Below are positions 8,090 through 20,000 of a stretch of 20,000 nt of DNA, one piece after another (position 1 is the stretch's first letter; each line of letters starts with the position of its first letter). The DNA comes from an uncultured virus (IMG/VR IMGVR_UViG_3300021420_000030) (lineage: Duplodnaviria; Heunggongvirae; Uroviricota; Caudoviricetes): IMG/VR virus record IMGVR_UViG_3300021420_000030. One strand, given 5' to 3'. The notes below the pieces were generated by a model. It was not told the origin of the DNA. It was given only the letters and a program-made list of their open reading frames with translations, and did not search any database. Position numbers and translations under genes: made by a program.

Positions 8090-8293
8090 TTAAAAATCCG
8101 GCAGACACTTTCCGTAAGGGACGCCGGTTTTCTTGTGCCTCGGCGAAACCCCGCCGGGTTGATCAGCGATAATCGGTTCCCGGCAGAAGAAGCAGACGCC
8201 GGTCTCCATGGTTGCCGGTAACGCCTTCGCCTTCTTACGCCGAGGCTTGGTCGATCCCTTCGCTGAGTTCGGACCATCTTGTCTCCCAGTCAT
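8090..8293 (-). CDS. Possible small Cys/His protein (start uncertain)
   Basis: Fills the gap after the terminase. CFFC...H...C could bind a metal. Confidence 0.3.
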   Translation of the reverse strand: MTGRQDGPNSAKGSTKPRRKKAKALPATMETGVCFFCREPIIADQPGGVSPRHKKTGVPYGKCLPDF

Positions 8294-9110
8294 CGATCAT
8301 CCTTTCCGAGGAAATATCTTGTTTTTGCCAGTCACTCACCGGCCCGCTACTCACATGCGAGACCACCGGATCAATGGCGAAGGACCAGTTGTGGGCGGCC
8401 CACAGGGCCAAGAGACATGCCGTGACCCGGTCATCGTGGCCACGGGCGGCAGCGCCCCGCAGGCGCACCAGATCCATTTCACAGTCAGCGAATTCCTCCA
8501 CCAGATGCGGGGACTTGAAGATCAGCTGCTTCCGGTGGATGTACCGGAGACCCTTGGTCCACAGATGCTGCATGGACTGCTTGGTCGAGTACCAGCCAAA
8601 GTCAAAGCGAGAACGTTCCGAGGTCATGCCGGTATCGAGATACTGCCAGCGGTACATATTCGTGTAGCCGTAAGATTCCATCATGGTGCGCTGGGTGGGG
8701 CCGCCGGGGCCCGGGTACACTTCTATAATGCAGAGGGCCTGCCCGTCTTCGTTGTTGCCGCCGTAGAGCCGTCCTAGCGCGTTTCCCACTTTGGCCAGAT
8801 CGTAGGGGTCGATGGGGGCGGCATACTCGGCCACCTGCATATCGGGCTTGAAGTGCGGGGAACCGGGTTCCCCTTGACCGACGCGGATGACTTCAATGGC
8901 TCCGTTATCGGTATCGGAGTCATCGCCAATACGATTGTACCTGTTCCAATTTGTGCGTCCCTGCGCAGCGTCAATACCGAGGATATACCTCGATCTTGGA
9001 TTCGGCGGCTCGTACAGCCAAACGATTCCGCGCGGGTCGCCATCGTAGCCGTCTGGCGCTTGAACCAACCGCTGGCGACCACCAATACGAAACTCTGATG
9101 GAGCAATCAT
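8235..9110 (-). CDS. terL: Terminase large subunit, C-terminal RNase H-like nuclease half
   Basis: GIVWLYEPP...YILGIDAAQG...DNGAIEVI...QVAEY...IIEV...HDDRVTA. Has its own ATG (ATGA overlap with the HNH stop) and a GGGAG RBS. Confidence 0.9.
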   Translation of the reverse strand: MIAPSEFRIGGRQRLVQAPDGYDGDPRGIVWLYEPPNPRSRYILGIDAAQGRTNWNRYNRIGDDSDTDNGAIEVIRVGQGEPGSPHFKPDMQVAEYAAPIDPYDLAKVGNALGRLYGGNNEDGQALCIIEVYPGPGGPTQRTMMESYGYTNMYRWQYLDTGMTSERSRFDFGWYSTKQSMQHLWTKGLRYIHRKQLIFKSPHLVEEFADCEMDLVRLRGAAARGHDDRVTACLLALWAAHNWSFAIDPVVSHVSSGPVSDWQKQDISSERMIDDWETRWSELSEGIDQASA

Positions 9111-9559
9111 TGAGCCCTGGTCTCCCTATACGCCTTACTGGCATAGTAACGATGACAAATCCGACAAACCCGCCATCCTCTTTTTTGAATAATCGTATTT
9201 TCTTTCGTATATTCGTGTCCCTGTGGGCAGTGAGTCTTCAATGTTTGACGGATATTGGCCAAGCCTCGCCGACAATTCTCACGGTTCGTTACAGGTTCCA
9301 TATGCCACGGGTTACAGCAGGCTCTCACCCGACATTTGTGATCGAGTTGCAAGCCTTCCGGAATTGTTCCAATTAGGACCGTATAAGAAATCCGGTGCGC
9401 AAGAAAAACGCTCCGATTAATGGTAATGACTCCATATCCTGCCTTAGTACGAGCAGACTTCCACATCCAACATTTAACAGAATCGGAATAGTCTTCGACT
9501 TTCGTCAGAAAATGCAGGAACTGAGAAAATGTCAGGTCGATATTTTTCATCTTCATCAC
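9107..9559 (-). CDS. HNH homing endonuclease between the terL halves
   Basis: CWMW...GYG...AHRISY...LDHKCRVRACCNPWHMEPVT..EN, plus a C-terminal KTHCPQGHEY...CRIC module. Confidence 0.92.
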   Translation of the reverse strand: MMKMKNIDLTFSQFLHFLTKVEDYSDSVKCWMWKSARTKAGYGVITINRSVFLAHRISYTVLIGTIPEGLQLDHKCRVRACCNPWHMEPVTNRENCRRGLANIRQTLKTHCPQGHEYTKENTIIQKRGWRVCRICHRYYASKAYRETRAQ

Positions 9560-10809
9560 AAACCCTCCAACTCGAACGCCACACCTTCAGTCGTGGTCGA
9601 TCTCATAAAGTCTAGGACAACGGGGCTGATCGCACTCTGGGTGGTGGCCTGGAAACTTTGCTCCGGGGTACAGGAGTAGTTGGACAAAAACAAGTTCAGA
9701 GCGTTGTTTTCAATCGCCTCAGAATAAGACGATTCCCACCAGTAGAGCTGTTCCCGCGAGAGCGTCACTTCCTTGCCGACAAACTCCTTACTGGTCTGAT
9801 GGACCTTCCACGCAGTTTGCAAAGTCGCTTCATTGGGGGCCCAGCCCTCCGGCGGGCGGCGGCGGTACTTCCGTGGCTCGGCATAGAATGGAATGAACAT
9901 ATAGTTCCAGCGCGGCATCTTCCCTTTCCGAACTTTCTCCGAAAAGGAATACCACCATCCACCGGGTCCGCTACGCCCCTGAGGTGTCGTTTCTTGCAGG
10001 GAAAAAGTGTAGGGATGCTGCGGTAACGTGGGAAAGAAGTCGAGTTCCAAGGAACGTCCGTAAGGCCACTGGCTCACCTCGGTATTGTGATTCACATCGA
10101 ACTGACGGCCGGTACCGATACCGGACTGCTGGCGGCCATGCTGATAGAGGATGCGGGAGCCATGCTCTTCGCCAAACTGGATATGCTCGGATTTTTTATT
10201 AAAGCCCACCTGTTCCTCACCCCAGCCGTGGGGCTTCAGGAAAAACGGAAGGTGGTCCAGGATCAGCCGGTCCCGGGTGTAGAGTTCACCGACCTTATCT
10301 TCATCGACACTGGCGGCCATGGCGCGGGTGTGGGGCCAGCCCACCAGACGATGCATGGTGACGGCCCGGCCAATGGCGGTGTGGCCCAACGCTCGTCCGC
10401 CCTTGTTGTCACAGATAAGGATACCGTCGCAGGGATAGCCTTTCTCGTAGTCCTCAATATTCTTCTCTTCGAGCTTAATAATCAGATTCATCAGAATCTG
10501 CTGCGATTCCCAAAACGTCTCGCTGAATTTGCCAATGCCACCACCGTCAACCCCGTCCCGCTCAATGGTCATGTAGCGAAGCGAATACCCGAAATCCTGT
10601 TGAAACAGGATCTGTTCATTGCGGATGAAATCGGCGTGTTCCTTATTCTGATACCGGCCGAAGGAATCGGTCAGCTTGCCTTGGGCGTGGAGTTTGGTTA
10701 AGTATTCGGTCGCGTCCCAGGACTCTTGAGGAGAATAACGGTGGAGACGGATTCTTAGTTCAGACTCTATCCTACCAAGCATTTTCTCCGTGACACGATC
10801 ACTGTACAC
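9556..10809 (-). CDS. terL: Terminase large subunit, N-terminal ATPase half
   Basis: Walker A-like KGGRALGHT, GTGRQFDVNHNTEV (Walker B region), coupling motif ETTPQG, FIPFY, and FLSNYSCTPEQSF. Ends at a TGA overlapping the HNH start. Confidence 0.9.
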   Translation of the reverse strand: MYSDRVTEKMLGRIESELRIRLHRYSPQESWDATEYLTKLHAQGKLTDSFGRYQNKEHADFIRNEQILFQQDFGYSLRYMTIERDGVDGGGIGKFSETFWESQQILMNLIIKLEEKNIEDYEKGYPCDGILICDNKGGRALGHTAIGRAVTMHRLVGWPHTRAMAASVDEDKVGELYTRDRLILDHLPFFLKPHGWGEEQVGFNKKSEHIQFGEEHGSRILYQHGRQQSGIGTGRQFDVNHNTEVSQWPYGRSLELDFFPTLPQHPYTFSLQETTPQGRSGPGGWWYSFSEKVRKGKMPRWNYMFIPFYAEPRKYRRRPPEGWAPNEATLQTAWKVHQTSKEFVGKEVTLSREQLYWWESSYSEAIENNALNLFLSNYSCTPEQSFQATTQSAISPVVLDFMRSTTTEGVAFELEGL

Positions 10810-18254: not shown

Positions 18255-18315
18255 GGATTTTGTTACACAACCTCCTTGTTTTGTTTTCAACAACATCCTG
18301 TTGTGTTACACAAAA

Positions 18316-18543
18316 TCACAGGGAAGCCCGTTGCTTCCACTCATGGATCTCTTTAAGCGCCTGTTCCAGAATCTTATTCCGTTCCTTGCAATACGGTTTG
18401 TGCTGCTTGAATAAATAGCGGGCGATATCCAGCCCGCATAGATCGCACGGAATACAACACATAATCGCGTGCTTAAAGCCCCTGTTCTGATGACATTGGC
18501 AATAACAACGATGATCGAGAACACTCTCTTTTTTTTCGCTCAT
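18316..18543 (-). CDS. Cys/His-rich small protein, opposite in orientation to its neighbours
   Basis: CYCQCH...H...CCIPCDLCG...H...C followed by a helical tail. Confidence 0.55.
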   Translation of the reverse strand: MSEKKESVLDHRCYCQCHQNRGFKHAIMCCIPCDLCGLDIARYLFKQHKPYCKERNKILEQALKEIHEWKQRASL

Positions 18544-18655
18544 AGACACACCAATCCTAAAAGAGAACCCCCTAAGAAGAACACTCTACAATCCGGGAAC
18601 CAGATCCAAGACCACTATTCCACGGGCCTCGCACGTGTGAAATCTCTCGAACACC

Positions 18656-18679
18656 AAAAAAAGAACGCTTTGCGCGTTC
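18656..18679 (-). terminator. Intrinsic terminator/attenuator upstream of the Cys-rich gene
   Basis: GAACGC-GCAAA-GCGTTC-TTTTTTT, nested inside an alternative ATCTCTCGAAC/GTTCGAGAGAT stem. Confidence 0.6.
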
Positions 18680-18819
18680 GAGAGATCCACGAAAGCACAT
18701 TCCGTCGGGGTAGCTGCTTTCGAGATCCGACATCCATCCAGCATCATCGCCTTCCTGCGTGACCCATGACTCGGCTAATGGACCCTCGGACAGGTACTTA
18801 CCGGCCTGCTGCTTACGCC

Positions 18820-18897
18820 TTAGCGCAGGGAGAAAAGAACGGCGCTGTAATGTCCGACAGTGGATTCAATTTTTATGAGATCCAAACCGTTATGCAT
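18820..18897 (-). CDS. Possible 25-aa leader peptide
   Basis: GGAG-7 nt-ATG. MHNGLDLIKIESTVGHYSAVLFSLR. Confidence 0.3.
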   Translation of the reverse strand: MHNGLDLIKIESTVGHYSAVLFSLR

Positions 18898-18924
18898 TTC
18901 AACGCTCCAAACCATTTACATTTT

Positions 18925-18996
18925 GAAGCGACGGTCCGGGCAACCCGGTTTGGTAGGCTGTCCTTGGTGGGAGCCAAGTAAGCCCGACCGCACCCC
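18925..18996 (-). ncRNA. Three-way-junction RNA, C4/CI-like antisense RNA candidate
   Basis: Closing stem GGGGUGCGGUC/GACCGUCGCUUC, whose G.U pairs fix the strand. Inner stem GGCU..CUUGG-CUCCCA-CCAAG..AGCC, junction ACCAAA, hairpin CCGGG-UUG-CCCGG. TTGACT lies upstream at 19021-19026. Confidence 0.55.
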
Positions 18997-19072
18997 AAAA
19001 TTCCCATATTTCCACGCTACAGTCAAGAACTATTTTTAGAGCCTCCTCGGCCCTCCCAATGCCCGCAGGCTA

Positions 19073-19101
19073 TTGCCAAGTCCTCAATATTTTGATATAA
19101 T
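19073..19101 (+). promoter_or_regulatory. Strong sigma70-type promoter
   Basis: TTGCCA-17 nt-TATAAT with a TGn extension. Confidence 0.8.
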
Positions 19102-19836: not shown

Positions 19837-19970
19837 TTGTGAGTCGCGGGGTATTACCCGACTTCATCGAGGCATTCTCCGGGTACGGGTCCGGGTCCGG
19901 GTACGGGTACGGGTACGGGTACGGGTACGGGGACGGGTACGGGTCCGGGGACGGGTGGGGGTGCGGGTAG
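19833..19970 (+). CDS. Gly-X (GY/GD/GS) repeat protein
   Basis: GTGA overlap start (alternative ATG at 19818). SGYGSGSGYGYGYGYGYGDGYGSGDGWGCG. Confidence 0.55.
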   Translation: MIVSRGVLPDFIEAFSGYGSGSGYGYGYGYGYGDGYGSGDGWGCG

Positions 19971-20000
19971 GGGGACCGGGACGGGGACGGGTAAGGGGAC
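19881..20000 (+). repeat. GGGTAC/GGGGAC hexamer tandem repeat
   Basis: The hexamer array runs to the window end and continues past the TAG. Confidence 0.9.

Follow-up and report, generated by a model that had tools for sequence, protein, structure and literature searches.

A conserved three-way-junction RNA with a variable loop and two covarying downstream sites in a tailed phage: a probable RNA switch different from the C4 type

A short minus-strand segment lies among plus-strand genes in the uncultured virus IMGVR_UViG_3300021420_000030, raising the question of whether it encodes an RNA, and if so of what kind. The window (the whole stretch of DNA analysed, 20,000 nt) is part of a tailed phage, with family profile matches to major head, portal, terminase, HNH, and methyltransferase proteins; a 64-kb contig from one soil metagenome run, which may be its source, spans it, and carries the RNA cassette without joints or variants in that one DNA run. 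A preliminary description of the locus proposed a processed antisense RNA of the C4/CI kind, regulating a downstream Cys/His-rich gene. The elements it named (a loop, its sites, a 25-codon ORF, a terminator, the Cys/His-rich ORF, and a plus-strand promoter) are all present where it placed them. What comparison with homologues adds, with very little room for doubt, is that the fold on the minus strand is conserved, and that its barcode loop covaries with two sites downstream. The folded element is probably a real RNA switch, different from the known C4 type.

Three members are known: the window, the related phage G001, and the metagenome contig L061. G001 is a complete 68-kb relative, with a terminase 68% identical to that of the window and a 90% match within the RNA. 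L061 was found with a pattern made from these two (one real match among nine in metagenomes); there the RNA is accompanied by genes for a methyltransferase, an HNH protein, and a CopG-like protein, and the sequence ends about 135 nt after the RNA.

Aligned, the three sequences give a three-way junction of about 62 nt, located at 18928..18993 on the minus strand of the window, where the model R1 finds a single copy. P1 is formed by 18993-18982 with 18941-18928, and is followed in order by UUA, P2, GACA, and P3. In the consensus, P1 has 10 bp and P2 5 bp, while P3 (GCC/GGU) closes a loop of 8-10 nt and rejoins P1 via 0-1 nt. The P2 hairpin (18963..18978) has an invariant YUCCCA loop on a stem that is 100% paired, with four of its five pairs changed on both sides. 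The P3 loop (18946..18955) is the variable, presumptive specificity segment: in the window it contains CCAAACCG (18953-18946), and it differs in every homologue.

Overall, 93% of alignment cells are paired, and five pairs (the four in P2 and one other) show changes on both sides. Only 2-7 of 500 shuffles matched the observed pairing or covariation, and slid controls dropped to 27-56% paired, in a test biased towards the consensus structure since this was drawn from the same three sequences that were scored. Taken singly, the window sequence folds with no more than modest stability (z = -1.46 over 72 nt, and -2.68 over the 81 nt of 18920-19000). P3 itself shows no covariation and has one G-G in G001, where the loop is predicted to be partly paired. 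A second invariant helix, GGCU/AGCC, competes with P3 and the inner part of P1, the two forms differing by 0.8-2.9 kcal/mol in energy folding. This competing form is the fold drawn in the preliminary description, which had put CCAAACCG at the junction; the single-sequence minimum-energy fold agrees, but the three-sequence comparison moves it into the P3 loop. The closed P1 form is predicted to be stable alone, leaving the P3 loop open in the window and L061.

The P2 loop has no consistent complementarity to downstream RNA across the three members. A second pairing proposed earlier, of GCUCC (18974-18970) with GGAGC, does exist in the window as a 5-bp match overlapping site 1 (below), but it shrinks to 4 bp in L061 and is missing within 100 nt in G001. 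Rfam 15 gave no relevant match to the RNA, at E ≤ 5 for the window, E ≤ 10 for 501 nt, and E ≤ 10 for L061 and L206; ARAGORN found no tRNA in the window.

The P3 loop is complementary to two sites just downstream on the same strand. Site 1, UGGUUUGG (18907..18915), begins 14 nt past P1 and allows seven Watson-Crick pairs and one G-U; site 2, CGGUUUGG (18882..18889), lies 25 nt past site 1 and allows eight Watson-Crick pairs. The loops of the two homologues, CUGGAGUC and UCUUGAUC, differ from the window loop and from each other, and in all three members each loop has two complementary downstream sites in its own sequence only. Cognate loop/site duplexes have energies of -11 to -13 kcal/mol, non-cognate ones -4.5 to -7.7. 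Two sites of at least 8 bp arose by chance in fractions of 0.00015 (window), 0.00125 (G001), and 0.006 (L061) of 20,000 dinucleotide shuffles, and the pair of sites is present in 3/3 true members vs. 0/52 pattern decoys. Within the 8-nt cores, four of the five departures from perfect complementarity read as G-U when taken on the minus strand, as expected if the pairing is between RNA segments of that strand. The earlier idea of a structured RNA with a loop directed at two sites of the same transcript is supported by compensatory change in both stems and loop/site sets.

The geometry is also similar: the two sites are separated by 25 (window), 23 (G001), and 25 nt (L061), and site 1 follows P1 by 14, 12, and 28 nt respectively, the last distance including a hairpin. 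In nested folding, the cis loop/site pairing has a probability of about 0.9 in L061 and about 0.01 in the window and G001, under a model that excludes pseudoknots. No genome-wide loop targets were seen at gene starts, and the window heptamer has five matches vs. 2.7 expected. Across the whole G001 record, the octamer GACTCCAG occurs 13 times (4.3 expected) and GATTCCAG nine times (4.9 expected), away from obvious gene starts as judged by eye. Separately, the 10-mer directly after P1 in L061 (139-130, minus strand) is identical to the window loop segment CTACCAAACC; it forms a small hairpin, and with an E of 1.2 in a pairwise search the identity is probably due to chance.

Where would such a transcript begin? 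A -35-like hexamer, TTGACT (19021..19026, minus strand), and a putative weak extended -10-like element, TG-n-GAATTT (18998..19006, minus strand; two of six consensus matches), precede the fold in the window, and would place the start near 18993. A TTGA hexamer is found 33 (window), 35 (G001), and 37 nt (L061) before P1. The L061 promoter was called by a promoter scan (10/12), while that of the window RNA falls under the scan threshold. The regular position of the -35-like hexamer, 33-37 nt before the fold in all three, suggests that the RNA probably starts its transcript, and lends no support to the processing from a longer leader that had been proposed. Back-to-back with the cassette stands a strong divergent promoter, TTGCCA-17-TG-TATAAT (19073..19101, plus strand; scan 11/12), predicted to drive the neighbouring plus-strand genes.

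Both sites fall at the start of a short ORF (18820..18915, minus strand), a candidate leader ORF of 31 codons if read from 18915 or 25 codons (18897-18820) if read from 18897. The GGAG of the 25-codon version is 7 nt upstream of its AUG, within GGUUUGGAGC (18913-18904). Site 1 overlaps the upstream AUG (18915-18913) and the first half of this GGAG, and site 2 covers codons 3-5 of the 25-codon ORF. Over the three members, four of six sites start at the G of an AUG, against a background of 9 of 90 downstream G's preceded by AU. The ORFs opened at the sites have 31/25, 45, 22, and 24 codons; they are unrelated to one another in sequence, mostly lack a clear Shine-Dalgarno, and have no Pfam or PHROG match. 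The 45-codon ORF of G001 has an HTH-like look, but assignment as an HTH protein was rejected, with no support from Pfam or Atlas.

Further downstream the three members have little in common, with no conserved or long ORF after the RNA in any of them; a look through all frames revealed no remnant of a nuclease or of any other family. The intrinsic terminator-like hairpin and U-run of the window (18656..18679, minus strand; hairpin 18679-18663) sits inside a longer alternative hairpin (18642-18686), and is not conserved: there is no sense-strand call at the equivalent place in G001, and a weak one in L061. Beyond it is a gene for a Cys/His-rich small protein of 75-77 aa (18316..18549, minus strand) with the pattern CxCxCH..H..CC..C..C..H. 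This protein belongs, by sequence, to a real but unnamed family (48 matches besides itself at E ≤ 0.001, of 56-83 aa, with eight invariant C/H columns among 38 aligned); it is probably metal-binding, and matches no Pfam or PHROG model. A profile of the family, run over the window, L061, and 39 phage stretches, found it in the window only, and not in G001 or L061. Because of this distribution, and of a promoter-like site at 18641-18614, between the terminator and the gene, control of the Cys-rich gene by the RNA is not upheld. In G001, another small Cys ORF lies about as far from the RNA, but homology of the two was rejected (E 24); the weak promoter-like sites that precede both are at about chance level. 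The window also has a direct repeat, AGAGTGTTCTC, at 18517-18527 and 18577-18587 (minus strand, 60 nt apart), with one copy inside the Cys-rich ORF and the other upstream of it.

The RNA is patchily distributed, occurring in 1 of 18 near-complete related phages. Patterns on the conserved core had 1 of 14, 1 of 26, and 1 of 59 viral loci real, always G001, and none of three genome loci; a pattern on the window loop and site 1 had none of ten. BLAST against GenBank phages and plasmids gave no useful match, and protein anchors adjoining the RNA retrieved no related loci. Over 50 related phage records, and over 1.07 Mb of their DNA, the model R1 found G001 only, plus one weak match without P2; over 151 genomes of one phylum it found no match, in a run made without a positive control. 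A model-free scan of 2.18 Mb for a loop with two sites picked up two of the members, the window and L061, but not G001; among its many background matches no additional member was obvious. Term searches, with most subscription journals outside their scope, did not find the motif described in print.

The G001 cassette heads a long run of co-oriented early genes, and the window cassette (18260-19050) is oriented, relative to its flanking genes, the opposite way from that of G001 (L013, 4500-5100); the one DNA run showed no joint of an inversion. TTGT-N5-ACAA palindromes at 18281 and 18301 mark the border of this inverted segment (18259-18313), with a similar third near 18260; G001 has none. G001 also carries a large sugar-modification cluster (L209, 5000-18600: glycosyltransferases, epimerase, nucleotidyl transferase, SIS, radical SAM, methyltransferases) and a PRTase + SLOG pair (L208).

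A different palindrome, TCCGGT-N5-ACCGGA, occurs perfectly five times in the window (14420, 16223, 17605, 19145, and 19509; 0.1 expected), three copies being just 5′ of the ribosome sites of plus-strand genes, and with a 6-nt spacer at 1721, 2769, 4220, and 8531. Allowing either spacer and one mismatch, there are 11 in the window, 21 in G001, and 0-2 apiece in 12 further related phages, making it a candidate clade-specific operator or leader hairpin. Elsewhere in the window, the terminase (8235-10809, minus strand) is apparently split into ORFs of 417 and 291 aa with an HNH gene (9107-9559) between them, while some relatives have a longer fused terminase of 650-730 aa; and the ORF after the DUF6948 gene contains a Gly-Tyr/Gly-Ser hexamer tandem repeat (19854-20000, plus strand).

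Two groups of known RNAs invite comparison. The C4 RNA of P1/P7 (RF01695; c4-a1b1) likewise has three stems in the order P1-P2-P3, with a variable P3 specificity loop that covaries with its targets (PMC5320573), a target close to a translation start farther down the transcript to which it belongs (PMC5320573, PMC2864571), and a GCY/RGU-like P3 base, as in the C4 rows of the PMC2864571 supplement. The differences are considerable. P2 lacks a tetraloop, having the 6-nt YUCCCA loop instead; the b′ strand, which in C4 pairs over the ribosome site, has no counterpart between P3 and P1; there is no upstream a1b1 target and no GGW start; 5′ processing, by RNase P in C4 and CI, is probably not needed; and a single loop faces two downstream copies, with no icd/ant. 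The Rfam models C4, c4-2, and c4-a1b1 found no match, in searches whose positive control was int-alpA copies and not C4. No upstream target is present within 300 nt in the window or G001, and the two weak upstream loop matches in L061 are both upstream of its promoter. No icd/ant/kil-type family match follows the RNA, and PHROGs and Pfam scans of 56 and 67 G001 ORFs (overlapping sets, from 82 ORFs of at least 90 aa and a few shorter) yielded no integrase, repressor, or antirepressor.

The P4 CI RNA (seqA/seqC) is similar in being a small RNA from an early leader whose own transcript contains the complementary sites (PMC4825925), for which early termination has been proposed (PMC4825925). It pairs both upstream and downstream (PMC4825925, PMC5499578), whereas both sites here are downstream, with no kil-like ORF. 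The isrK model (RF01394) scored 13.4 bits vs. 50, a chance-level match over the terminator. With no Rfam match, no b′ strand, and no upstream site in its transcript, the RNA is not a member of the C4/CI group to which it had been likened.

The closest anatomy is that of the int-alpA leader (Rfam RF02996, typed Gene; sRNA; gathering 35.8 bits). A sample of 19 int-alpA matches in 12 of 151 genomes (18 over the cut-off, three confirmed with Rfam) was used for comparison. These have a three-way junction with stems in the same order, as compared by eye; similar junction letters, though of different lengths (UA / GAAAA / CU vs. UUA / GACA / U here); and a P3 loop with two complementary sites after a 9-14-nt linker, such downstream complements being found for 8 of 18 copies in a crude fixed-window test. 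In several, too, the fold is immediately preceded by a -10-like hexamer. The int-alpA loop, however, is an anti-Shine-Dalgarno (CCUU), while the loop here is free in sequence; its sites are about 13 nt apart, vs. 23-25 nt here; and its site 2 is the ribosome site of a long gene, while the sites here lie over the starts of ORFs of 22-45 codons. P1 here has at least 10 bp, and P2 has its invariant YUCCCA loop. The RF02996 model matched none of five phages, including G001, at E ≤ 10, and found none in the window; a model from the 18 true int-alpA copies gave the RNA no score, and model R1 scored none of the 19 int-alpA matches. By these model tests, the RNA is not a member. The name int-alpA is absent from the main text of PMC5737381, and in the literature passages where it appears it is merely listed or names a gene order.

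How might the RNA work? It may be a two-site leader switch that controls the message it belongs to: the transcript would start at the fold, and the loop, toggling between near and far sites, would gate translation of the short ORF. In our estimation this reading has about an even chance of being right. The promoter would yield a transcript opening with the roughly 62-nt junction, and the 8-nt phage-specific sequence of the P3 loop would then pair with either matching site, 12-55 nt downstream on the same message. These sites lie over the beginning of the short ORF, at its start codon, its ribosome site, or its opening codons. Near and far sites would compete for the loop, either intramolecularly or with another molecule occupying the free site, and this competition would set how often the short ORF is translated, and with it how far transcription or translation proceeds, in a mode of action like that of the int-alpA leader. 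Here we infer the promoter and start point, the translation control, the cis action, and the regulated output. In favour of such a switch are the fold and junction letters kept in three independent sequences, the joint covariation of loop and both sites with cognate-only matching, the retained promoter and site geometry, the stem order, junction likeness, and paired downstream sites shared with true int-alpA copies, and the AUG-anchored position of most sites. Against it are the small number of members, the lack of shared sequence among the short ORFs, of a conserved gene after them, and of a conserved terminator, the weakness of P3 in G001 and the rival GGCU/AGCC helix within 1-3 kcal/mol, the restriction of cis pairing in nested folds to L061, and the failure of any int-alpA model to score the RNA.

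The same features could also serve in trans. A trimmed 5′ fold might accumulate as in C4/CI systems and bind both sites of its own transcripts or of incoming ones with the same barcode, blocking the short ORF and stopping transcription early in an immunity or dosage role. We consider this possible but doubtful. Specificity in trans requires a phage-specific barcode, as found, and the a′ loop of C4 is equally variable (PMC5320573, section 16); the stem order and P3 base are C4-like (PMC2864571), the G001 copy precedes a long co-oriented early region, and the closed P1 form is predicted to persist alone with an open loop in two members. The missing b′ strand, upstream site, and icd/kil/ant genes argue the other way, as do the lack of an integrase or repressor among the scanned G001 ORFs (mostly above about 90 aa), the orientation of the window cassette, pointing away from the adjoining early genes, and the occurrence in a single one of the 18 near-complete relatives, which means that the RNA is not essential to the clade. 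A still more speculative extension, which we think improbable, is a family of barcoded RNAs counting related genomes without a protein repressor: the near site would be bound in cis and the far site by other copies, so that accumulating genomes of one barcode would shut early expression, making an RNA-only immunity or multiplicity sensor for phages in which neither integrase nor repressor was detected.

It is also unlikely, though slightly less so than this counting scheme, that the cassette is an orphaned int-alpA-like leader whose former mobile gene (e.g., an endonuclease) was lost or has decayed. The want of a conserved or long ORF after the RNA in all three members, the patchy distribution, and the inversion relative to G001 would be expected of one; yet no nuclease or family remnant was found downstream, all three retain the fold, the promoter spacing, and both sites intact, and the L061 context reaches only about 135 nt past the RNA. 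That the motif acts as DNA, as a protein-binding site present in one inverted and two direct copies or as local duplications, seems very improbable: the sites are direct repeats at a regular 23-25 bp spacing, but the motif is wholly different in the three members, its mismatches are G-U-compatible on one strand, the inverted copy is the loop of a covarying fold, and there is no common neighbouring protein gene. Hardly any weight can be given to the plus-strand 71-aa ORF (18766-18981) as the selected feature. Its stop and last few codons do recur in both homologues, as the reverse complement of the RNA core, but the open frames have 72, 47, and 34 codons, with indels of 2-3 nt and upstream parts that are unrelated, and there is no homologue candidate in the protein collection or family match. 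The possibility raised in the preliminary description, that this ORF is the conserved translated feature, can therefore largely be set aside.

The RNA adds a motif to which Rfam 15 gives no score, and compensatory changes in nature are evidence for one loop matched to two sites on its own message. It has features in common with the C4/CI antisense systems, which have been tested, as well as with the int-alpA leaders. Its three natural loop/site sets offer a basis for discriminating cis from trans action, which bears on int-alpA-type leaders as well. Action in trans would make the RNA a small orthogonal switch and, for phages, an exclusion signal that needs no protein.
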